From Treponema sp. (lineage in GTDB: Bacteria; Spirochaetota; Spirochaetia; Treponematales; Treponemataceae): a stretch of 64,000 bases of DNA. A program made the position numbers and the translations under genes. The notes beneath the pieces are model-generated. The model had not been told where the DNA came from. It searched no databases and saw only the letters and a program-made list of their open reading frames with translations. The stretch is from contig JAXJGY010000051.1 of assembly GCA_036300185.1 (NCBI GenBank), positions 44,693 to 108,692 on the forward strand. Reading direction: 5' to 3'. This document shows positions 2,860 through 53,265 of this stretch, one piece after another (the first letter of the stretch is position 1; every line of letters starts with the position of its first letter).

Positions 2860-3723
2860 ATGTCAAAGACAGATACAGAGGTGGGAGTCTCTGAACAGCA
2901 AATAAAAGAAATCAAGAAAGCTGCCAAGAATCGGATTAAGGCGGTAAAGGCTTCTGCAAAGGAAGAAATTCAGCGTATCCAGATGGAGCGCTACGCTGCC
3001 TTAAAGCCTGCTAAGGCTGCAAAAAAAGTAGAAAAGGCTCAGCAAAAAGCTGAACAAAAAGCCTATGAAGCTACCATTCCCAAACGATATTCCATTGGAG
3101 AAGAGATTTTCAACTCAGTAACTCACGGAATCGGTGCGGGGCTGGCAGTGGCTGCCACAGTTCTCTTAGTGGTGAGAGCAGTATTTCTAGCTCCTGCTGG
3201 AGAAATAGGCTTTTACGTTACTAGCTTTGCCATCTTTGGTGCCTCCTTAGTGATTCTGTACCTCATGTCCACCCTGTATCATGCCCTTACTCCCTACGGA
3301 GCAAAAAAGATTTTTGCTATATTTGATCACTCTTCCATCTACCTCTTGATTGCAGGAACCTATACACCTTTCTGTTTAACGACCCTTCGTGGTGCAGTAG
3401 GTTGGACCTTGTTTGGAGTGATTTGGGTTTTGGCTGTGGCTGGCATGACATTCTACGCTATTTTTGGAAGCCGAATGCGGGTGCTTTCTGCTATTACCTA
3501 CATCTTGATGGGTTGGTTGGTGGTTTTTGCCATTAAACCGATGGTGCAGAACCTGAATCCCTTGAGCCTAAAGCTTGTGGTAGCTGGTGGTATTGCCTAT
3601 ACGGTGGGCTGTATCTTTTACGCAATGAAAAAAATCAAGTGGATGCATTGTATCTGGCATCTTTTCGTAATCTGTGGAAGTATTTTCCACTTTTTTGCGG
3701 TGTATTTTTCTTTGCCAGCATAA
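2860..3723 (+). CDS. Hemolysin-III/PAQR family membrane protein with a ~70-aa Lys/Ala/Glu-rich N-terminal extension
   Basis: [16 protein letters not shown] and [17 protein letters not shown] motifs, seven hydrophobic helices, GAGGAG SD upstream. Confidence 0.8.
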
Positions 3724-3745
3724 TTTGATTAATTGAAGTCTCCTA

Positions 3746-6178
3746 ATGCAGGCTTTTACTACTGACTGCTGGCGGAATGGTGTTGCAAATCTTCCCATTA
3801 CTGCCAGCCTTGATTCCATTGTCACTTCTCTCAAAGAATCTCCTTCCAGAAGCCTTGTTCTAACAGCGGAAACTGCCGCAGGTAAGTCCACTGTTGTTCC
3901 GCTCGCTTTGATGGAAGCTTTTTCTGGAAAAATTCTTGTAACAGAGCCTCGTCGTCTTGCTGTGGTGGCTGTGGCATCTCGTCACAGCGAGCTACTGGGA
4001 GAAAAGCTTGGTGCAACTGTTGGGTATCGCTTGCGGTATGATACCTGTGTTTCCTCTGCCACCAAGATTGAAGTGATGACCGATGCCATCCTCACAAGAA
4101 TTATCCAAAATAATCCAGCCTTAGATGGTATTTCTGTCATTGTTCTAGATGAATTTCACGAGGGTTCCTTACATACAGATCTTTCTTTGGCCTTTCTCAA
4201 AGAAATTATGTCCTTGCGGGATGATTTATATTTGGTGGTTATGTCTGCTACCATGGATGCTCAAAAGGTGGCAGAATTTTTAGGTGATGCTGAACAAGCT
4301 CCCATCTTCCATGTGGCAGGAAGGCAATTTCCTGTGGAAATCCAGTACCGTCCTCCTAAAAAATCCCAGAGCGGTTTTGTTGAAAATGCTGTTCTTTTGT
4401 CAGCTTGTGCTGCTGCAATTATGGATGAACTAAAAAATCCCTGGAATCAAAAGGATTGCGGGGCGATTTTAGCATTTTTGCCGGGAATTGGTGAAATCCG
4501 TGAATGTGGCCGCTTGTTGGAGACCCTCGGTGGAGCTGAACTGGCAGAAATTCTTTTGCTACATAGCTCCATTTCCTTGGAAGAACAGAAAAAGGTTTTA
4601 TCCAGTGCTGATTCTGGTCAGCGTCGGGTGATTTTAAGCTCTTCTATTGCAGAAACGAGTCTTACAGTTCCAGATGTAACGGTGGTTATTGATTGTGGAT
4701 TAAGTCGTGTAAGCCGATTTCATCACAACACTGATATGAGTCGTCTGGTGACAGAGGTGGAAAGCTCCTTTTCGGCAGAACAACGGACAGGTCGTGCTGG
4801 TCGTATCCAAGCAGGTTGTTGTGTGCGGCTCTGGTCTCAGGATGAAAGACGTCTTGCAAGTCCTCCTCCAGAAATCACTCGTACTGACTTGCTTCCTGTG
4901 GTGCTGGAATGTGCCCGCTGGGGAGTCTCTAACGTGGATGGTTTAAAGTGGCTGGACAATCCATCTTCTGGTGGCTGGAATGCAGCGGTAGAATTGCTTC
5001 AAACTATGGCTTGCCTTGATTCTCAAGGAAGCATTACTGCATTAGGCTGCAAAGTTCTGGAGCTAGGAGTTCATCCTCGAATTGGTTGTGTGGCTTTAAG
5101 TGGAAAACCAGATGCACTGCGATTAGCTGCATGCTACGGTAGTGCCGATTCAGTGGAGGAAAAGCGTCTTTTTGCTGATTTGCAGCGGAAGGTGAGTCCT
5201 TCTTCCTTGAAAAAGGCTACAGGGGACTCCAAGGAACAATCTCTTTCTTCAGATTCCTCAGATTCATCTCTAGCGCTTTTGTATGGTTTTCCAGATCGAT
5301 TGGCAAAATCAGTGGGTGAGGGGAGTTATCAATTTCCTTCAGGCCGTACCGCACAGCTTGCTTCCCGATCTTCTTCTCAAGTCTCGTTAGGAAACACCTT
5401 CCCCAAATGGATTGTAGGTATAGAAGTTGATGCTGGTTCATCCACTGGCCGTATCCTTCGTTGGGAAGTCCTTGCTTCTGAGTCAGTGGAAGCTTGGTTG
5501 CAAGATCACGCCACAGAAGCGGTGGAGCTAGATGTAGATGATAATTCTGGCAAGGTGGTAAAACATCAAGTGAAGCGATACGGTAAGCTAGAGCTGGAGC
5601 GTAGGCGGCTTGTTCCTGACTCCTGCGATGTGGCTCAGGCTCTTTGTAGCCAGCTGCGACGAAAAGGCTTTGAAAGTCTGCCGCTTTCCCCACAAAGTGA
5701 CTCCTTGTTGCTCCGTTGCAATCTGCTCCGTGAAATTACAGGGAAGGAGAGACTGGAAAAAGCTTTCTTGATGGATGCTTTGGAGCAATGGCTGCTTCCC
5801 TTCCTTGGTTCAAGTACAAAGCTCACTGCCGACGTGGTGTATCAAGGCTTGTACTGGTTTTGTGAAGGTAGTTTAGTAGATCAAGAAATTCCGCTTGTAA
5901 TTAACCTATCCAACGGTAAACGGAGAAAATTAAAATACGAGATTATCGCTGGAAAAACCACACCTGTGCTTGAGGTAATTATTCAGGATATGTTCGGCTG
6001 CTTTGAAACTCCTGTGGTGGCAGGTATTCCTGTTCTATTACGCTTATTGTCTCCTGCAAGCCGACCTTTGCAGGTTACCACAGATTTAGCTGGATTTTGG
6101 GATACCAGCTGGCCTCAAATTTGTAAGGAAATGAAAGGGCGTTATCCCAAGCATAACTGGGACTACAAAAAATCATAA
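3746..6178 (+). CDS. hrpB: ATP-dependent helicase HrpB (DEAH/RHA family)
   Basis: Walker A AETAAGKST, LDEFHE box, SSSIAETSLT and QRTGRAGR motifs, and a conserved HrpB C-terminal domain ending ...GRYPKHNWDY. Confidence 0.8.
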   Translation: MQAFTTDCWRNGVANLPITASLDSIVTSLKESPSRSLVLTAETAAGKSTVVPLALMEAFSGKILVTEPRRLAVVAVASRHSELLGEKLGATVGYRLRYDTCVSSATKIEVMTDAILTRIIQNNPALDGISVIVLDEFHEGSLHTDLSLAFLKEIMSLRDDLYLVVMSATMDAQKVAEFLGDAEQAPIFHVAGRQFPVEIQYRPPKKSQSGFVENAVLLSACAAAIMDELKNPWNQKDCGAILAFLPGIGEIRECGRLLETLGGAELAEILLLHSSISLEEQKKVLSSADSGQRRVILSSSIAETSLTVPDVTVVIDCGLSRVSRFHHNTDMSRLVTEVESSFSAEQRTGRAGRIQAGCCVRLWSQDERRLASPPPEITRTDLLPVVLECARWGVSNVDGLKWLDNPSSGGWNAAVELLQTMACLDSQGSITALGCKVLELGVHPRIGCVALSGKPDALRLAACYGSADSVEEKRLFADLQRKVSPSSLKKATGDSKEQSLSSDSSDSSLALLYGFPDRLAKSVGEGSYQFPSGRTAQLASRSSSQVSLGNTFPKWIVGIEVDAGSSTGRILRWEVLASESVEAWLQDHATEAVELDVDDNSGKVVKHQVKRYGKLELERRRLVPDSCDVAQALCSQLRRKGFESLPLSPQSDSLLLRCNLLREITGKERLEKAFLMDALEQWLLPFLGSSTKLTADVVYQGLYWFCEGSLVDQEIPLVINLSNGKRRKLKYEIIAGKTTPVLEVIIQDMFGCFETPVVAGIPVLLRLLSPASRPLQVTTDLAGFWDTSWPQICKEMKGRYPKHNWDYKKS

Positions 6179-45047: not shown

Positions 45048-45914
45048 TTATTTTTCCCAAGGAGCAAAATCAGCGATGGCTTGAACCTTTTCGCAAGCAT
45101 CGTTATAACCAGCTTCGTAGAGTCGTTGCAGGGCTTGCTGATTTTTTGACAGACGGCCAATTACCACCTCTGGTGCGGGGCGGAATACAAAGGCTTTTCC
45201 TTCCTGCTCCAGTTGCTGAATGTAGTCCAAGGTTTCGTTGTATTTTTGCCAGCGCTGCAGGTTTGTTTCGATGAGGGCAGGATATTTTTTGTACATGAAC
45301 CGCAGTGCTTTTTCCGTGGAACTGGAAACAGGCTTTTTTCGATAGCCTGCTGGTTGGGTCAAGATGATAATGTGCTTGGTGTGGCCATCCTTTTCTGCCT
45401 GACGAACAGGAATTGAATCTGAAATGCCTCCGTCGAACCAGTCAACGCCGTGGATGGTAACAGGCTTACCGATGATGGGCAGGGAAGATGAGGCTTCTAG
45501 CCACAGAAGGGCTGCTTCTGGGGAATCGGGGCAGATATAGTGGGCTTCTCCTGTGGTGGCCTTGGTGGATACCACGTAGAATTTGCGATTTTCGTTCTGA
45601 TTCTGGAAAAAGGTATACCAATCTACACAATCGTTGGCGGGAATGGTGCGGAAGATGTAGTCAAAGCCAAAGTAGGTACCATGACGAAGGAGACACAGAG
45701 GGCCTGAATAACTAGCTTTTTCTACGTGATTTACATTGACCCGTCGGGCCCTGTCAAACTGACGAGAAATATAGGATAAGGCATGACAAGAGCCTGCACT
45801 GACGCCGTAAGTGTTGTTCCAGTACATGTTCCGCTGGATAAAGCAATCAAGGATGCCGGCTGCATACATGCCACGCATTCCGCCACCCTCTACGATAACT
45901 GAAATTTTTTCCAT
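45048..45914 (-). CDS. Patatin-like phospholipase
   Basis: Oxyanion GGGMRGMY, nucleophile elbow GVSAGS, and a catalytic Asp region (WFDGGISDSIP). Confidence 0.85.
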   Translation of the reverse strand: MEKISVIVEGGGMRGMYAAGILDCFIQRNMYWNNTYGVSAGSCHALSYISRQFDRARRVNVNHVEKASYSGPLCLLRHGTYFGFDYIFRTIPANDCVDWYTFFQNQNENRKFYVVSTKATTGEAHYICPDSPEAALLWLEASSSLPIIGKPVTIHGVDWFDGGISDSIPVRQAEKDGHTKHIIILTQPAGYRKKPVSSSTEKALRFMYKKYPALIETNLQRWQKYNETLDYIQQLEQEGKAFVFRPAPEVVIGRLSKNQQALQRLYEAGYNDACEKVQAIADFAPWEK

Positions 45915-45920
45915 GGGAGT

Positions 45921-45929
45921 ATTGTATCA
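45921..45929 (-). promoter_or_regulatory. Extended -10 TGaTACAAT 6 nt upstream of the patatin ATG (candidate leaderless promoter)
   Basis: Minus strand reads gTGaTACAAT-actccc-ATG; no SD. Confidence 0.4.
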
Positions 45930-46002
45930 CAGGACGGGAAGGAAGTCACCCTGTTGCCAGTAAGACCCTTGGGGGCTCCCGCACTTTTGCAGGGGCAAAA
46001 GT

Positions 46003-46217
46003 GAGACTCGCTAAAATTGCTCAATATATCGCAATTTTCCGGCTTTACAGCCGTCGCTCCCTATCTACCCAGAGTATAGCCCACTGAACGAAAGAGTGGG
46101 TGGAGGATGCCAGCGGGTGCCTACCGATGCCGCCCTCTGAGCGAAGCGAAGTGTAAGGCAGCGGTGGGCTGCTGGCAACCTCCACCGCTTTTAATTTCAT
46201 TGAACCTATGCTATACT
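46003..46217. repeat. ~215-bp structured direct repeat, copy A (~95% identical to 46817-47030)
   Basis: gagactcgctaaaattgctcaatatatcgcaattttccggc...ggtggagg...cctccaccgcttttaatttcattgaacctatgctatact. Contains at least 4 hairpins and ends in a promoter. Confidence 0.9.
46209..46217 (+). promoter_or_regulatory. Extended -10 TGcTATACT 6 nt upstream of the antitoxin ATG (candidate leaderless promoter)
   Basis: aTGcTATACT-ttaccc-ATG(46224); no SD. Confidence 0.45.
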
Positions 46218-46223
46218 TTACCC

Positions 46224-46439
46224 ATGGAGTACAATGTAAATTTCACTTGGGATGAAGAAGCCTGTGTCTGGATTGCCCAAAGCGATGATATTCCCGGATT
46301 AGTTCTGGAAAGTGGTTCTTTGGATGCACTTATTGAGCGTGTCCGTTTTGCAGCTCCAGAATTAATTGAACTCAACAAAACTCCTCCAATTCACTCATTT
46401 TTCTTCAGTGTTCAACGACACGAAACGGTATTAGCATAA
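46224..46439 (+). CDS. DUF1902/HicB-like antitoxin candidate
   Basis: MEYNVNFTWDEEACVWIAQSDDIPGLVLESGSLDALIERVRFAAPELIELN matches my memory of DUF1902. The track ORF 46107 N-terminal extension lies in the repeat and is rejected. TAATG overlap with the next gene. Confidence 0.6.
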   Translation: MEYNVNFTWDEEACVWIAQSDDIPGLVLESGSLDALIERVRFAAPELIELNKTPPIHSFFFSVQRHETVLA

Positions 46440-46633
46440 TGGCAGAATACGAAAAACGTGTTCGAGAAATTCTCCTTCTAAATGGGTGCTATTTTGTACG
46501 CCACGGTAAAGGTGATCACGACATTTATTATAGTCCAATTACAAACCGCAATTTTACTGTAGATTCAAAGATAAAATCACGCCATACCGCCAATGCCATC
46601 ATGAAGCAAAGCGGTATCAATCATCATTTTTAA
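46439..46633 (+). CDS. HicA-family mRNA-interferase toxin candidate
   Basis: 64 aa; ...GCYFVRHGKGDHDIYYSPITNRNFTVDSKIKSRHTANAIMKQSGI follows the HicA pattern G-x-H...P...TVP...K.aGl. Confidence 0.6.
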   Translation: MAEYEKRVREILLLNGCYFVRHGKGDHDIYYSPITNRNFTVDSKIKSRHTANAIMKQSGINHHF

Positions 46634-46683
46634 TATTATCTTTAGGGGGAGGGAACCCCTCTACTGGTCAGCGGGGTTTTCCC

Positions 46684-46876
46684 GCGGTTTCGCAGGGGCA
46701 AGGCGTGCAAGCACGCACCGAGACTCGCTAAAATTGCTCAATATATCGCAATTTTCCGGCTTACAGCCGTCGCTCCACAGGCGGTTTCGCAGGGGCAAGG
46801 CGTGCAAGCACGCACCGAGACTCGCTAAAATCGCTCAATATATCGCGATTTTCCGGCTTGTAGCCGTCGCTCCCTA
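46684..46876. repeat. Tandem duplication, 2 x 97 bp
   Basis: Units start at 46684 and 46781: gcggtttcgcaggggcaaggcgtgcaagcacgcaccgagactcgctaaaatYgctcaatatatcgcRattttccggctt..agccgtcgctcc. Confidence 0.85.
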
Positions 46877-47030
46877 TCTATCCAGAGTATAGCCCACTGA
46901 ACGAAAGAGTGGGTGGAGGAGGCCAGCGGGTACCTACCGATGCCGCCCTCTGAGCGAAGCGAAGTGTAAGGCAGCGGTGGGCTGCTGACATCCTCCACCG
47001 CTTTTAATTTCATTGAACCTATGCTATACT
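46817..47030. repeat. ~215-bp structured direct repeat, copy B
   Basis: Aligns end-to-end with 46003-46217 with one indel and ~10 substitutions. Confidence 0.9.
47022..47030 (+). promoter_or_regulatory. Extended -10 TGcTATACT 7 nt upstream of the DTW-gene GTG
   Basis: aTGcTATACT-ccatccc-GTG(47038). An in-frame TGA at 47014 excludes upstream starts; no SD. Confidence 0.4.
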
Positions 47031-47037
47031 CCATCCC

Positions 47038-47772
47038 GTGGCAGAAAAATGTCTTCGTTGTTTTAGACCCCTTTCCACCTGTTATTGCCCCCATATCACG
47101 GCTATAGATACTGGTATCAAGTTTGTTTTTCTCATGCATCCAAAGGAAGCCTATCATCAGCATACGGGAACAGGCCGACTGGCAAGCTTGTCCTTGGTGG
47201 ATTCGGAAATCATTGTTGGAATTGATTTTACTCAAAACAAGCGGTTGAACCAGCTGTTGTCTGATTCAGCTTATTTTCCTGTGGTGTTGTATCCTGACGA
47301 TGATGCCTTTACCGCCCAGTCGCCTCAGTTAAAGGAAGCTTTGGATCCTGTTGCTGGGGGAGAAAAGCGGAAATTGCTGGTAATTGTGGTGGATGCCACT
47401 TGGTTCTTTGCCAAGAAAATGCTTCGGCTTTCTCCCAATGTGCGAGCTTTGCCTAAGCTCTCTTTTCAGCAGCTGTATACCTCGGAGTTTACCTTCAAAA
47501 GGCAGCCAGCAGAAGGCTGCGTTTCCACCATTGAGTCCTGCTATCATCTGATTCGTGAAATGCAAGTTGCCACCCTTGTGTCAGCTCAGATAGATGCAAG
47601 TCCCCTCATGATGGTGTTTCGCCGAATGGTAGATTTTCAGCTAGAGGCAGAGCAAAATCGTATTGCCTTGGGAATTCCAGGCCGTCATTCCTATGATGCA
47701 GAACGAGATGTAAATAGAAAAAAACGGAAACGGCGACAACGGGTGGAAAATCCTACTTCCTCAGAATCTTAA
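47038..47772 (+). CDS. DTW-domain protein (tRNA acp3U aminocarboxypropyltransferase family, TapT/TuaA-like)
   Basis: N-terminal CLRCFRPLSTCYC cluster and VVDATWFFAKKM (DTW motif). Confidence 0.75.
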   Translation: MAEKCLRCFRPLSTCYCPHITAIDTGIKFVFLMHPKEAYHQHTGTGRLASLSLVDSEIIVGIDFTQNKRLNQLLSDSAYFPVVLYPDDDAFTAQSPQLKEALDPVAGGEKRKLLVIVVDATWFFAKKMLRLSPNVRALPKLSFQQLYTSEFTFKRQPAEGCVSTIESCYHLIREMQVATLVSAQIDASPLMMVFRRMVDFQLEAEQNRIALGIPGRHSYDAERDVNRKKRKRRQRVENPTSSES

Positions 47773-47823: not shown

Positions 47824-50800
47824 ATGAAAAAATCTGAAAAGATAAGTGCTCTTTCTGGGATTAGTCTGCTGATCATTGCAGCTTTGTTTCTTGTTGCCCT
47901 ACTGCTTCAGTTGATTCCCTTTGGAAATAAGGCATCTGCTCCCTTCCTTAGCGGTTTGGGAGGACTTTTATATGGCGCCTATGGGTATTCTAGCCTTTTA
48001 ATTCCTGCTTTTTTCTTTGCAGCTGGTTTAGGATGTTTTCTTTTTCCTTGGAACGAAAGAATTGGTGTATTGTATGCCTCCTCTTGTATTCCCTTTTTTA
48101 CCGTTGTTATTTGTGAAAAAGTTTGTGCTGAAATGTTAGCCCTCGGAAATAGCCCTTTGGTGGGTATTCAGGTATCTGTTGCAATAATCGTTTGTATTCT
48201 AGTGCTGGGGATTGAATATTTTGCCGCTTCCTATGTAGGTGGATATATTCTGAATAAATTACGAGCAGGAACACCAAAACCTGCTGCTCCAAAAACAGAA
48301 GCCTATCCACCAATTTTCCCTGAAGGAATCATTCAAGAAGATATCGTAGATTTTGCTGAAGATGATGCGCTTGCTATTGAGTCTGAAACTGCCACGGATG
48401 ATGCTTCAGTGGAGGGTGTTGCCCTTGAAGCACTAGATAACGGTGAAGAGGTTGCCTTTGAGGAAAGAGAATTTAATGCCGAGGAGCAGTTTCATTCAGA
48501 GGCTAACTTTCTTCTAAAAGAAGAGCTACCAGAAGAAAATAAATTTCTAGAGGAAACTAAAATTCCAGTGGAAAATGATTTTCCTCTAGAGGATGAAGTG
48601 TTGGAGGAAGAATATTTTCCTGTTGAAGCAACTTTAGATTCTGAATTAGAAGAAGCCTTGGCAATCGAAAAGGTTTATGTTCAGGATGAGGAGCCCATTC
48701 GTAAGCCCTTATCCAGTCCAATACAATTAGAAGCTCAGCAGGATGAGCCTGAATTGAATCAAACTTTTCAGAATCAGGTTGAGTTAGAGGAGCTGGAGCA
48801 AATATCTTCTACCGAATCAGCAAATGAAGCAGACCTTACGGCAGAATGTCAGGAAGAAGTGGTAGAAGATGTGTTTGGAGCGGATTTTTTTGCCACAGCA
48901 CCCGTTCCCGAAGAAGATGTATTTTCTAAGGAATACATTGAAGAATTTCAGCTACAAAAAAAAGCCAGTCAAAAGGAAAATCTGGAAGCTGTAGCCTATG
49001 AGGTCCCTGCCCAAGTGCCAGAAAAGGACGAGCTTCAGGCTCAAGAAGAGGCTGAAGAAGCTGTTTCTGAGGAAGAAGGTGTTGCTTCTGTACATTTTCA
49101 GCCCATTCCCCAATATTCCTTGGATCCTACACCTGTTGCCATTGAAAGGAATTTGGAGTTTGATTCCCCTGAGCTAGAAAATCCTGGGGAAGCAGCATTT
49201 TTTGAGGATCCCTTTGGAGACAATTCTGGTACTATGGATAACTCTGTTGTTACTCAAGCTTCCCATTTGGAAGATGAGTCATTGCAACTGTCGGAATCAA
49301 TCTATGAAGATGATTTTATCGTGAATGAGGAGCATCATGTTTTAGATGATTCCATTGTTCGACAGTCTCTTGAAGCAAAAGAGTCTTCTGAGGATGATTT
49401 CTGTGAAAGTCCTTCCCCTGAGAGCGATGATTTTGATATTCAGCTTGAAGAACAGGAGGATGATTCTAAGGAAGAGCTCCTTGTTGAAGCAGATTTTGGA
49501 GAGGAAGACTTAGACGATGGTGAAGACCAAGTAGCTTCTGTGGAAGAGGAAGCCATAGATGATGATGAAGATCAAGAAGTTTCCATGGAAGATGTAGATG
49601 TTCTTGATGATGAAGCTGAAGAAACAGAGCCTTTCGTAGAGGCTGTCCAGATTCAGCAGCCAGTGGTGGAGCGTGCCGTGCCTCATCCTGTGCGGGGCCC
49701 CTACAATGTGCCTGCTAATGAGCTTTTGACCTCCTATCCTGATGGTGAATATTGGATTATCGATGAAGAAACAGTGGCGGCCTCTCATCAGTTAAAAGCA
49801 ACCCTCAGTGAATTTAAGATTGAGGCTGAGGTAACTGGTATCCGCAAGGGACCAGTAATTACCATGTTTGAGATTTTGCCTGCTCCCGGTGTAAAACTCA
49901 GTAAGATTGTGGCTCTGCAGGATAACATTGCCCTGCGTCTTGCTGCATCCAGTGTTCGTATTGTGGCTCCCATTCCCGGTAAGCATGCAGTGGGAATCGA
50001 AGTGCCCAACAAGGAGCGGGCCATCGTAAGCTTTAAGGAATTGATTGATACCGAGCATCCAGCCTTCCGCAAGCAGGCCGTCCCTGTGGTTCTTGGAAAG
50101 GATATTACTGGTGAGGTCCAGGTTATTGACTTGGCCAAGACACCTCACCTGCTGATTGCTGGTTCCACTGGTTCTGGAAAATCTGTTTGTGTTAACTCCT
50201 TAATTCTTTCAATCTTGTTCAAGCGTTCTCCCCAGGAAGTTCGCATGATTTTGATTGACCCAAAAATCGTTGAGCTTAAGCTGTATAACGATATTCCTCA
50301 TCTGCTGACTCCAGTTATCACTGAGCCCAAGAAGGCTTTTCAGGCTCTGCAATATTGCTTGTGCGAGATGGAGCGGCGGTATGCCCTGCTGGATGGCATG
50401 GGTGTGCGAGAAATCACCAGTTATAACAAGCGGATTGTGGAGCGGAACATCGCCACAGAAAAGCTTCCCTACATTGTGGTAATTATCGATGAGTTTGCAG
50501 ACTTAATGGCCACTACTGGCAAGGAATTGGAGTCCACTGTGGCTCGTCTTGCTGCCATGAGTCGTGCCGTGGGAATCCATCTGGTGTTGGCAACCCAGCG
50601 TCCTTCCATCGATGTAATCACTGGTCTTATTAAAGCAAATATTCCTTCTCGAATTGCCTTTATGGTGGCCTCCAAAATGGATAGCCGTATCATCATTGAT
50701 CAGGTTGGTGCAGAAAAACTTTTGGGCAAGGGTGATATGCTCTATGCCTCTGCCTCAGATCCCTTCCCAGTGCGTATTCAAGGAACCTTTGTGTCTGACA

Positions 50801-51108
50801 ACGAGGTAGAAAATGTAGTGGAATTCGTAAAGCAATACGGTGAGCCCGATTATATCGACGATGAGATTTTCGTTGATGACGAGGAGCCCGAAATTGGCCC
50901 CAGCTTGTTTGGGGAGGGAGACGATCCTCTCTATGATCAAGCTGTGGAAATCGTTATGCAGGCGGGAAAGGCTTCTGCGTCTTACATTCAGCGGCGGCTC
51001 AAAATTGGTTACAACCGTGCAGCTCGCTTGGTAGAAGAAATGGAAGAAAAGGGCCTTGTTGGACCAGCCAATGGTTCCAAGCCTCGTGAAATCATCCATA
51101 TGCCCTAA
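47824..51108 (+). CDS. ftsK: DNA translocase FtsK with a ~480-aa hyper-acidic linker
   Basis: N-terminal TM helices; motor domain with Walker A GSTGSGKS and Walker B VVIIDEFADL; C-terminal gamma winged helix SASYIQRRLKIGYNRAARLVEEME. Confidence 0.93.
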   Translation: MKKSEKISALSGISLLIIAALFLVALLLQLIPFGNKASAPFLSGLGGLLYGAYGYSSLLIPAFFFAAGLGCFLFPWNERIGVLYASSCIPFFTVVICEKVCAEMLALGNSPLVGIQVSVAIIVCILVLGIEYFAASYVGGYILNKLRAGTPKPAAPKTEAYPPIFPEGIIQEDIVDFAEDDALAIESETATDDASVEGVALEALDNGEEVAFEEREFNAEEQFHSEANFLLKEELPEENKFLEETKIPVENDFPLEDEVLEEEYFPVEATLDSELEEALAIEKVYVQDEEPIRKPLSSPIQLEAQQDEPELNQTFQNQVELEELEQISSTESANEADLTAECQEEVVEDVFGADFFATAPVPEEDVFSKEYIEEFQLQKKASQKENLEAVAYEVPAQVPEKDELQAQEEAEEAVSEEEGVASVHFQPIPQYSLDPTPVAIERNLEFDSPELENPGEAAFFEDPFGDNSGTMDNSVVTQASHLEDESLQLSESIYEDDFIVNEEHHVLDDSIVRQSLEAKESSEDDFCESPSPESDDFDIQLEEQEDDSKEELLVEADFGEEDLDDGEDQVASVEEEAIDDDEDQEVSMEDVDVLDDEAEETEPFVEAVQIQQPVVERAVPHPVRGPYNVPANELLTSYPDGEYWIIDEETVAASHQLKATLSEFKIEAEVTGIRKGPVITMFEILPAPGVKLSKIVALQDNIALRLAASSVRIVAPIPGKHAVGIEVPNKERAIVSFKELIDTEHPAFRKQAVPVVLGKDITGEVQVIDLAKTPHLLIAGSTGSGKSVCVNSLILSILFKRSPQEVRMILIDPKIVELKLYNDIPHLLTPVITEPKKAFQALQYCLCEMERRYALLDGMGVREITSYNKRIVERNIATEKLPYIVVIIDEFADLMATTGKELESTVARLAAMSRAVGIHLVLATQRPSIDVITGLIKANIPSRIAFMVASKMDSRIIIDQVGAEKLLGKGDMLYASASDPFPVRIQGTFVSDNEVENVVEFVKQYGEPDYIDDEIFVDDEEPEIGPSLFGEGDDPLYDQAVEIVMQAGKASASYIQRRLKIGYNRAARLVEEMEEKGLVGPANGSKPREIIHMP

Positions 51109-52488: not shown

Positions 52489-53265
52489 ATGAAAAGAATT
52501 ATTTCCTGGAATGTAAACGGTATTCGTGCAGCTGAAAAAAAGGGTTTTATAGATTGGATTGGTGCTTCTGGTGCCGATGTGGTGTGTATTCAAGAAACAA
52601 AGGCTCGAAAGGAGCAGCTTTCTCCAGAGTTATTGTCTCCCGCTTGGGAGGGTGGTACTTATTTTTCCTATTGGGCCAGTGCCCAGAAGGCTGGTTATTC
52701 TGGTACTGCAATTTATAGCCGAACAGAGCCCGATTCCGTAGAGATTATGAATGTACCAGAATACGACCATGAAGGCCGTGTGTTGGTGGCAAAATTCGGC
52801 AAGCTGGCAGTTATCAGTGCATATTTTCCCAATAGCCAGGATGCCGGTGCTCGGTTGGATTACAAGCTGGGCTTTTGCGGTGCTATGAAGGAATTCTGCG
52901 ACAAGCTAGTGGCAGAGGGCTTTAATCTGGTGTTGTGTGGAGATTATAACATTGCTCACAAGCCCATGGATTTGGCAAATCCCAAGTCCAACGAAAAGAA
53001 TGCAGGTTATTTACCAGAGGAACGGGACTGGATGGAATTCTTTACCACCAACGGCTATTGCGACACCTTCCGCAAATTCTGCCAAGAGCCAGGAATGTAT
53101 ACCTGGTGGAGCTATCGCTTTAAGGCCCGAGAAAAGAATATTGGATGGCGTATTGACTATCAGTGTGTAAATAATTCCTTTGCAGATAAAGTACTGTCTT
53201 CAAAAATCCTTGCTGATGTTTTGGGATCTGATCACTGTCCTGTAGTGGTGGAAGTTGAGGACTAG
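52489..53265 (+). CDS. xth: Exodeoxyribonuclease III
   Basis: MKRIISWNVNGIRAA...VVCIQETK...GDYNIAH...WRIDY...GSDHCPV. Confidence 0.93.
   Translation: MKRIISWNVNGIRAAEKKGFIDWIGASGADVVCIQETKARKEQLSPELLSPAWEGGTYFSYWASAQKAGYSGTAIYSRTEPDSVEIMNVPEYDHEGRVLVAKFGKLAVISAYFPNSQDAGARLDYKLGFCGAMKEFCDKLVAEGFNLVLCGDYNIAHKPMDLANPKSNEKNAGYLPEERDWMEFFTTNGYCDTFRKFCQEPGMYTWWSYRFKAREKNIGWRIDYQCVNNSFADKVLSSKILADVLGSDHCPVVVEVED

Follow-up and report, generated by a model that had tools for sequence, protein, structure and literature searches.

Why should a small toxin-antitoxin (TA) pair lying between two unrelated genes be bracketed by two almost identical, hairpin-rich repeats that each end in the same promoter-like box? 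The question is raised by a 64-kb stretch of a Treponema sp. genome (GCA_036300185.1, contig JAXJGY010000051.1), referred to here as the window, in which a HicA-family toxin gene and its antitoxin-like partner (hicBA) separate a divergent patatin-like phospholipase gene from a DTW-domain gene. The explanation preferred here, to which a probability of about 0.6 is assigned, is that each of the two repeats is a copy of a composite made up of two structured intergenic modules dispersed in a gut Treponema clade, designated mod5 and mod3. In this explanation mod3 would act as a portable promoter, and a mobile hicBA cassette would have come to lie before the mod3 of the DTW gene through homology-driven cassette exchange. 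Relatives were examined as public loci, seen as 8-kb locus fragments and numbered L001, L002 and so on.

Two modules and their dispersed copies

An earlier note on this DNA had described a 215-bp unit present twice, and much of that description was recovered. By blastn, 46003-46217 and 46817-47030 are 95.3% identical over 215 nt with one indel, and the four hairpins claimed for each copy were all read in the sequence at their places. In copy A these are AAAATTGC (46013-46020) / GCAATTTT (46031-46038), CGGCT (46040-46044) / AGCCG (46049-46053), CCCACT (46080-46085) / AGTGGG (46095-46100), and a long hairpin closed by GGTGGAGG (46099-46106) / CCTCCACC (46179-46186) and followed by GCTTTTAATTT. 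The + strand of this copy folds at -108 kcal/mol (z = -5.0 vs shuffles), and the reported double change on the first stem, AAAATTGC/GCAATTTT versus AAAATCGC/GCGATTTT, is real. The extent and number of the copies required revision: the likeness begins upstream of 46003, at about 45977, where a further hairpin carries its own compensatory change (GCA..TGC versus GCG..CGC), and to the two genuine copies must be added an overlooked third, partial one at 46684-46776, which forms a 97-nt tandem with 46781-46873 (96% identical). Nor is the 215-bp unit a single element. Ten public contigs encoding an identical HicA protein were used to map its pieces, and it was split into two separable modules, each of which is found independently elsewhere. 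In the window they are arranged as follows.

45977-46060 (+): mod5 copy A, a multi-hairpin module resembling repetitive extragenic palindromes and bacterial interspersed mosaic elements (REP/BIME); hairpin 1 is CACTTTTGC (45982-45990) / GCAAAAGTG (45995-46003)
46061-46217 (+): mod3 copy A, 95% identical to copy B, with covariation
46071-46080 (+): 5' box and left inverted repeat of mod3 copy A, AGAGTATAGC
46099-46186 (+): long hairpin of mod3 copy A, followed by a U-rich tail at 46187-46201
46205-46217 (+): 3' box of mod3 copy A, CCTATGCTATACT, which holds the extended -10 sequence TGCTATACT at 46209-46217
46684-46780 (+): mod5 copy B1, first unit of the 97-nt tandem duplication
46781-46873 (+): mod5 copy B2, in which hairpin 2 has the AAAATCGC/GCGATTTT variant
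46874-47030 (+): mod3 copy B, before the DTW gene, with left inverted repeat 46884-46893, hairpin arms 46912-46927 / 46984-46999 and 3' box 47018-47030

The larger module, mod3, is about 155 nt long and runs from CTATCTACCCAGAGTATAGC through CCTATGCTATACT. In the predicted fold its TATACT box pairs with the upstream AGAGTATAGC (46071-46080), so that the module has terminal inverted repeats, 10 bp long across the family (GCAGTATAGC / GCTATACTGC). A pattern scan with the 3' box, run on one genome per species, matched at least 14 loci in the metagenome-assembled genome (MAG) Treponema sp. MAG007, and four other gut Treponema MAGs had at least 5 loci each, whereas matches in other taxa were about as numerous as estimated for chance. 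The suggestion that the repeat is a REP-like or transposon-like structured family rather than a local oddity is thus upheld, with many copies in at least five Treponema species representatives. Altogether 43 unique Treponema copies of mod3 were collected, and copies and structure were assessed by nhmmer profiles and by RNAalifold with pair counts. These copies have in common a 5' box (CCCCATCTAYCCAGCAGTATAGCCCGATGAACGAAAG), a long hairpin, a U-rich tail and an invariant 3' box; the hairpin stems fall into several unrelated sequence alleles, with a conserved apical region (CTSTGAGCGWAGCGAAGYG). The hairpin is followed by GCUUUUAAUUUCAUU or CCCCUUUCACUUUCAAUUU, a U-rich stretch in which the U tract is interrupted.

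In the 43-copy alignment, 94.6% of the cells in the consensus structure are paired, compared with 83.8% in shuffles (0 of 500 reach the observed value) and 30-43% in slid registers, and the covariation score is 0.362 against 0.183 and at most 0.104, respectively. Double-sided changes occur in 16 of 29 mod3 pairs, a tally of the pair tables gives about 160 G.U cells to about 16 A.C cells (about 10 to 1), and the + strand folds better in 37 of the 43 copies. The G.U excess and the strand bias favour a hairpin that acts at the RNA level, in the strand sense of the downstream gene, with the qualification that the copies are not independent of one another. The helix formed by the terminal inverted repeats is nearly invariant and therefore provides no covariation evidence either way. 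Six of the 43 copies carry chimeric hairpins, with the 5' arm from one allele and the 3' arm from another, and fold weakly; mini copies devoid of the hairpin retain the 3' box (L005, L006, L008). The hairpin is thus under selection in most copies yet, as the chimeric and mini copies show, not indispensable. The arm-swapped hairpins, together with the differing hairpin alleles at orthologous sites, also indicate that mod3 copies recombine with each other, apparently for the most part at the conserved apical region.

The smaller module, mod5, is about 60-100 nt long (...GAGACTCGC..CGTCGCTCC) and is a REP/BIME-like multi-hairpin unit, commonly 5' of mod3 and tandemly duplicated in the window. A profile search identified 19 unique copies in Treponema loci, with or without an adjoining mod3. 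Hairpin 2, with 98% pairing and two pairs that show compensation, occurs in four fully compensated forms: AAAATTGC/GCAATTTT, AAAATCGC/GCGATTTT, AAAGTTGC/.CAACTTT and AAAGTCGC/GCGACTTT. Where one side alone has changed and pairing persists, the pair is G.U. The compensatory change in the window is therefore part of a wider pattern, a conclusion of modest strength given the low diversity of the copies. Compensatory changes are present in further copies of both modules and support the selection on structure proposed from the first two copies, strongly in mod3 and modestly in mod5.

Several minor observations concern the modules themselves. Copy B1 of mod5 contains an extra palindrome, GGCGTGCAAGCACGC, that copy A does not have. 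Fusions of truncated mod3 5' halves with other modules occur in L023 (reverse strand, ~5160-5415), L038, L011, L055, L028 and L092, and the junction of GCCGCCCT with AGTACCAGC in a truncated mod3 recurs in two loci of two species. A leftward open reading frame (ORF) or promoter from the 5' box (reverse complement TATACTGCTGGGTAGATGGGG) was considered and dropped, the frame differing between copies; a kink-turn or other named motif in the apical loop, looked for by eye only and without consistent support across alleles, was dropped as well.

Fixed distance to start codons and the promoter interpretation

The claim that the same promoter-like box ends both repeats proved correct, TGCTATACT lying 6 nt before the ATG of the antitoxin gene at 46224 and 7 nt before the GTG of the DTW gene at 47038. 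This geometry belongs to the family. For 43 of 45 copies, the distance from the end of TATACT to the ATG or GTG of a long ORF is 6 or 7 nt; the remaining two (L023, L075) have a 20-nt spacer with a GGAGG Shine-Dalgarno sequence, downstream of the repeat. Since this first sample had been ascertained through the 3' box, the search was repeated with a profile of the 5' box and hairpin only: every full-length copy again ended in a 3' box at or near the consensus, with a start codon 6-7 nt further on, and the other matches were truncated 5' halves beside other repeat modules or reverse-strand echoes. The genes downstream of mod3 are unrelated housekeeping genes (GH3, MFS, DNA methylase, SlyX, DUF1295, XseA, PyrF, RsgA, PepT, HisIE, DTW), and orthologous genes carry the module in different species (hisIE, DTW, xseA, pepT, GH3, DUF1295).

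The spacers between box and start codon (TTACCC, CCATCCC, GCMYCC) are without a purine-rich motif, so that mod3 provides no ribosome-binding site; TTACCC is the one that separates TATACT from the antitoxin ATG. The perfect extended -10 sequence TGCTATACT is invariant in all mod3 copies and the -35 region is weak. The same geometry also occurs away from the repeats: TGnTAnnnT ends 6 nt before the first possible start at the patatin gene and at three repeat-free genes of the window, where about 0.1 such cases are estimated by chance. The sites are 45921-45929 (-) for patatin and the starts at 52489 (+), 61660 (+) and 55489 (-) for the others. At patatin, the geometry is kept in an 85%-identical relative, L123. 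These cases suggest that leaderless mRNAs may be common in this genome. Because the distance is fixed and repeat-free genes share it, the 3' box is read as a putative promoter for leaderless mRNAs, in agreement with the promoter first proposed from the two window copies. The extended -10 would set the transcription start at the start codon or 1-2 bases from it, as the geometry implies; the antitoxin gene would accordingly be leaderless from 46224. Upstream of it, the mod3 hairpin and its U-rich tail may terminate or insulate transcription entering from upstream.

Gene calls at these sites are affected by the repeat. In the window, the ORFs that run through the mod3 hairpin (46107-46439, +; 46825-47235, -) are artefacts, and public gene calls that read through the repeat give lengthened products, 104-110 aa for DUF1902 and 264-269 aa for DTW (L002, L004, L007, L009, L010).

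Origin of the bracket and competing explanations

The identities given earlier to the four genes around the repeats (DUF1902, HicA, DTW and patatin) were all confirmed by Pfam.

46224-46439 (+): antitoxin-like gene, 71 aa (DUF1902, PF08972, 75.6 bits, residues 2-55)
46439-46633 (+): HicA-family toxin gene, 64 aa (PF07927, 31.2 bits, cutoff 27)
46634-46683 (+): post-toxin G/C hairpin segment, GGGGGAGGGAACCCCTC...GGGGTTTTCCC, a 5' extension commonly found ahead of mod5
47038-47772 (+): DTW-domain gene, 244 aa, GTG start (PF03942, 159.2 bits, from residue 3)
45048-45914 (-): patatin-like phospholipase gene (Pfam 62.9 bits, cutoff 27.7), divergent from the cassette
45921-45929 (-): predicted patatin promoter of the leaderless type, TGATACAAT, 6 nt, ATG (promoter scan and geometry)

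The earlier note had allowed that insertion of the TA pair duplicated the repeat. Against this, a single mod3 stands before DTW in L088, where neither the TA pair nor mod5 is present, and the DTW-proximal copy is of another hairpin allele, about 70% identical to the window mod3, in L002, L004, L010 and L113. Around the TA pair the alleles occur as v1-TA-v1 (window), v1-TA-v2 (L002) and v2-TA-v2 (L113), and in view of these differing alleles the 95% identity in the window is just one of several states. The DTW-proximal mod3 thus appears to be the resident module of DTW itself, and the bracket would result from a hicBA cassette, equipped with a mod5-mod3 of its own, lying before it.

Evidence for mobility of the cassette comes from its distribution. 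Public assemblies list the identical HicA protein in 167 blocks, and it appears in at least four genomic contexts (patatin/DTW, FGE-sulfatase/DTW, FGE-sulfatase/AraC and CoA-binding/hisIE), each of them in at least two independent assemblies; in all contexts the antitoxin gene directly follows mod3 or its 3' part, and mod5 is present in only some. The window segment 45977-46633, comprising mod5 copy A, mod3 copy A, hicB and hicA, is 98-99.4% identical to L002 against 88-92% for the flanking genes, and in the comparison with L113 hicA is 100% and hicB 98.6% identical against ~90% for DTW and FtsK. The hicBA cassette therefore seems to be mobile. The post-toxin G/C hairpin segment is kept after hicA in L002 and L009, and similar segments precede mod5 in L015, L063, L068 and L108. 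A second site, upstream of hisIE, was found in three states.

L021: flank X - mod3 - hisIE (empty site)
L023: flank X - mod3 - [74-aa YefM-like + YoeB] - repeat debris - mod3 - hisIE
L001 and L003: mod3 - hicBA - mod3 - hisIE

The YoeB toxin of L023 scores 124 bits, and the arrangement of L075 resembles that of L023. Two unrelated TA families, hicBA and YefM-like/YoeB, thus occupy the same mod3-flanked layout at hisIE, where an empty site also exists, and the proposed association of the repeat with cassettes is borne out. In the mechanism we envisage, mod3 would natively stand upstream of the hicBA cassette as well as of numerous housekeeping genes, DTW and hisIE among them, and cassettes would be exchanged, most likely by homologous recombination or gene conversion, between copies of mod3 or mod5. 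For example, if a unit of mod3 and TA pair integrated at a resident mod3, the pair would end up with a mod3 at either side. The vehicle we infer for the cassettes is accordingly recombination between mod3 copies.

A number of points weigh against this interpretation. Promoter, leaderless start and terminator activity are all deduced from the sequence. The promoter scan missed TGCTATACT, no good -35 being present, and a rule-based terminator scan flagged nothing at mod3, whose stem is too long and irregular for the rules of that scan and whose U tract is interrupted. The + strand hairpin is conserved and yet lies upstream of the proposed promoter; about one third of the copies have a divergent gene upstream, so that termination of read-through cannot explain all of them, and the broken chimeric hairpins and hairpin-free mini copies described above show the hairpin to be dispensable in some. 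Several contexts come from short-read metagenome assemblies, which are prone to mis-joins at repeats, although each context was present in two or more independent ones. Homologous recombination, finally, is a putative vehicle, reconstructed from the arrangements.

The conserved + strand hairpin would also fit a different explanation, which we consider unlikely: mod3 would be a transcribed 5' leader, cis-regulatory RNA or small RNA (sRNA) that starts upstream of the hairpin and binds a factor at its apical loop, TATACT not being a promoter, and the pairing of AGAGUAUAGC with GCUAUACU, the terminal inverted repeats, would hide the region before the start codon and so control translation. The strong + strand covariation with its many G.U pairs, the apical sequence conserved across unrelated stem alleles and the inverted-repeat helix predicted in both the full and the consensus fold speak for such an RNA, and the outermost pair of that helix covaries weakly (CG 26, GC 5, GU 4), although the helix is otherwise invariant and without covariation evidence. 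No convincing promoter was noticed upstream of the hairpin on reading the sequence of the 5' box, however, and no Shine-Dalgarno sequence stands between hairpin and start, even though the genome uses them (AGGAGA at FtsK; GGAGG in L023 and L075). The mini copies keep the 3' box and its 6-nt spacing in the absence of a hairpin, and the repeat-free window genes share the extended -10 plus 6 nt geometry. No Rfam family matched either: none at the gathering score in the whole window, none on the repeats of 11 other loci with other alleles, and only chance-level matches (E >= 0.28) in a permissive search of 45900-47100. The sRNA origin suggested in the earlier note is thus not favoured. That mod3, and mod5 with it, are classical miniature inverted-repeat transposable elements (MITEs) moved in trans by a transposase, with the TA pair flanked by two independent insertions and any promoter activity incidental, is rather improbable. 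A length of ~150 bp, multiple copies (at least 14 in one MAG) and a long hairpin are classic MITE traits (PMC3184786), the 10-bp terminal inverted repeats fit, truncated and nested copies exist, and insertion sequence (IS) elements lie beside or inside some copies (L003, L008). Random transposition would nevertheless not yield full-length copies all in one orientation and at one distance to a start codon, nor copies at orthologous positions in different species (the six genes named above). Copy-specific target-site duplications were not found, the mean best flank match being 3.02 versus 2.69 +/- 0.18 for mismatched flanks and the residual likeness a family-wide C-rich consensus, and no cognate transposase was identified in the 64-kb window and the 8-kb locus fragments. 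The possibility of a transposing MITE, also raised earlier, is disfavoured on these grounds.

TA cassettes flanked by similar structured repeats of ~150 nt, as here, recall chromosomal integron arrays. With structure more conserved than stem sequence and different cassettes at the same site, mod3 might then be an attC site folded as single-stranded DNA in a cluster of attC sites lacking integrons (CALIN), the TA pair being moved by an integrase. This was judged very improbable and rejected: the core sites RYYYAAC / GTTRRRY are absent (mod3 copy A is without any GTT, and the conserved ends are GCAGTATAGC/GCTATACTGC), the repeats precede dispersed single-copy housekeeping genes and form no array, they lie upstream of and fused to start codons, and their G.U-rich pairing suggests RNA and not DNA. 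A strain-specific local duplication or assembly artefact of no wider significance, for which the local appearance of the tandem 97-nt mod5 at 46684-46873 could be cited, has a negligible chance of being correct and is refuted by the dispersed copies, since independent assemblies (L002, L113) show the same architecture and dozens of further loci, spread over several species, carry the modules. Returning to cassette exchange between resident modules, a more ambitious version can be entertained only tentatively: mod3 may be an insulated leaderless-promoter module for at least a dozen co-controlled genes and at the same time an integrase-free docking site for TA cassettes (hicBA, yefM-yoeB) within and between species, its apical loop serving as the handle for a trans-acting factor or as the preferred crossover point.

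Other observations concern the cassette and its surroundings. The two small genes agree with a type II HicAB system in having a HicA-family toxin and, beside it, a HicB-type antitoxin fold; the antitoxin gene comes first, and the hicA start overlaps its stop at 46439. DUF1902, described as similar to the HicB N-terminus, is the only domain on the 71-aa antitoxin, and no DNA-binding domain suited to autoregulation was recognisable in Pfam, nor was there any NCBIfam hit. With such a DUF1902-only protein, the usual autoregulation by the antitoxin may be absent from hicBA. No TA-free patatin-DTW junction was obtained in a metagenome scan with patatin, the one relative that it gave, L123, having a different neighbour; synteny of L123 with the window ends at ~45948, ~34 nt upstream of the patatin start, and the gene next to patatin there (3010-3876) reads as a PD-(D/E)XK/Rpn-like ORF. 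Searched by blastn with the 1.1-kb unit, collections of plasmids and phages returned no match and thus gave no link to a known mobile replicon. In L003 (4824-5717) an IS element (helix-turn-helix plus rve integrase) has inserted into the TA-proximal mod3 at its 5' end, a Transposase_mut gene stands beside the TA pair of L008 (896-2143), and in L009 two deletions at short microhomologies (CCTC and GC; ~2361 and ~2875) took most of both TA-flanking repeat copies.

Relation to described repeats and significance

The closest described analogues of mod3 appear to be the REP2 repeats of Neisseria and the IR-A/IR-B repeats of Borrelia, likened here by description and not by sequence. As summarised in PMC3184786 (citing Parkhill 2000 and Morelle 2003), REP2 is 120-150 bp long, is present in 23-26 copies with internal stem-loops, and places a promoter, ribosome-binding site and ATG just upstream of 14 co-regulated genes. 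As far as that summary goes, REP2 and mod3 are alike in size, in multiplicity, in their position directly upstream of unrelated genes with fusion to the translation start, and in carrying internal stem-loops towards the 5' end; whether the genes share a regulon can be asked of either family, with a promoter described for REP2 and predicted for mod3. In the same account REP2 has a ribosome-binding site and no terminal inverted repeats, whereas mod3 lacks a ribosome-binding site, its -10 box stands 6-7 nt short of the start codon, its ends are 10-bp inverted repeats, and its single long hairpin occurs as several covarying alleles. Co-regulation by REP2 is reported there as shown experimentally, while mod3 is known from sequence alone. 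The IR-A/IR-B repeats of the spirochaete Borrelia burgdorferi are given in that source (citing Dunn 1994) as plasmid repeats of ~180 bp, directly upstream of genes, with promoter, translation start and internal inverted repeats; on this description they differ from mod3 in being plasmid-borne, low in copy number and provided with a ribosome-binding site, mod3 being chromosomal, multi-copy and of the leaderless type. Of the traits that mark the Neisseria and Borrelia repeats, mod3 therefore shows fusion upstream of unrelated gene starts and 5'-ward stem-loops, but not the ribosome-binding site.

Other families resemble the modules in part. Pneumococcal BOX elements are modular mosaic intergenic repeats (boxA/B/C) with predicted RNA structure (PMC4803016, PMC6212727), and a BOX insertion upstream of yefM-yoeB created an extra promoter for that TA operon (PMC4803016). 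Modularity and a promoter at a TA operon are thus shared with mod5/mod3, but BOX is scattered intergenically and not locked to start codons, and its promoter adds to the autoregulated promoter of the TA operon itself, whereas mod3 appears to be the sole promoter of a hicBA pair whose antitoxin has no recognisable DNA-binding domain. The Correia elements (Correia repeat enclosed elements, CREE) of Neisseria, of MITE size, carry functional outward promoters in their terminal inverted repeats, and pneumococcal SPRITE repeats contain a hairpin resembling a Rho-independent terminator (PMC3184786). Both types of feature are combined in mod3, which differs from both families in its fixed orientation and distance to start codons and in the lack of copy-specific target duplications; Correia elements make target duplications and take variable positions relative to genes, and SPRITE is biased to convergent genes' 3' ends. 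Enterobacterial REP/BIME recall mod5 and its extensions as short G/C-rich palindromes in variable mosaics and tandem arrays between genes (PMC3184786), with no sequence relationship. A search of a limited literature library for Treponema repeats, intergenic elements and leaderless genes returned nothing describing the mod3 family. We regard the family as new and hitherto undescribed, although its general kind is known; what sets it apart is the leaderless-promoter geometry and the connection with the exchange of TA cassettes.

Both livestock and non-industrialised human populations carry abundant gut Treponema, which are, to our knowledge, almost uncharacterised genetically. If the proposed explanation is correct, mod3 would provide a recognisable promoter and leaderless-start signature for dozens of their genes and would correct the systematic mis-annotation of start codons seen where DUF1902 and DTW calls are extended through the repeat. 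It would also represent, as a leaderless counterpart to Neisseria REP2, a natural case of a repeated promoter module, the spread of which to precise positions becomes testable, as well as a simple route for TA cassettes between genomes, as suggested by a block 98-99% identical inside flanks ~90% identical, and it could serve as a ready-made promoter part for genetic tools in gut Treponema.

The remaining observations concern neighbouring genes and other loci. Exact-protein look-ups found no record of DTW, and for patatin just one contig, which is uninformative because it stops within the repeat region, 153 nt upstream of the gene. A ZMP/ZTP riboswitch, unrelated to the repeats, matched at the Rfam gathering score in L015 (6168-6244). 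Downstream of DTW, FtsK (47824-51108) has a very long acidic low-complexity linker; between relatives this linker is only ~74% identical, against 90-92% for the C-terminal region of FtsK.

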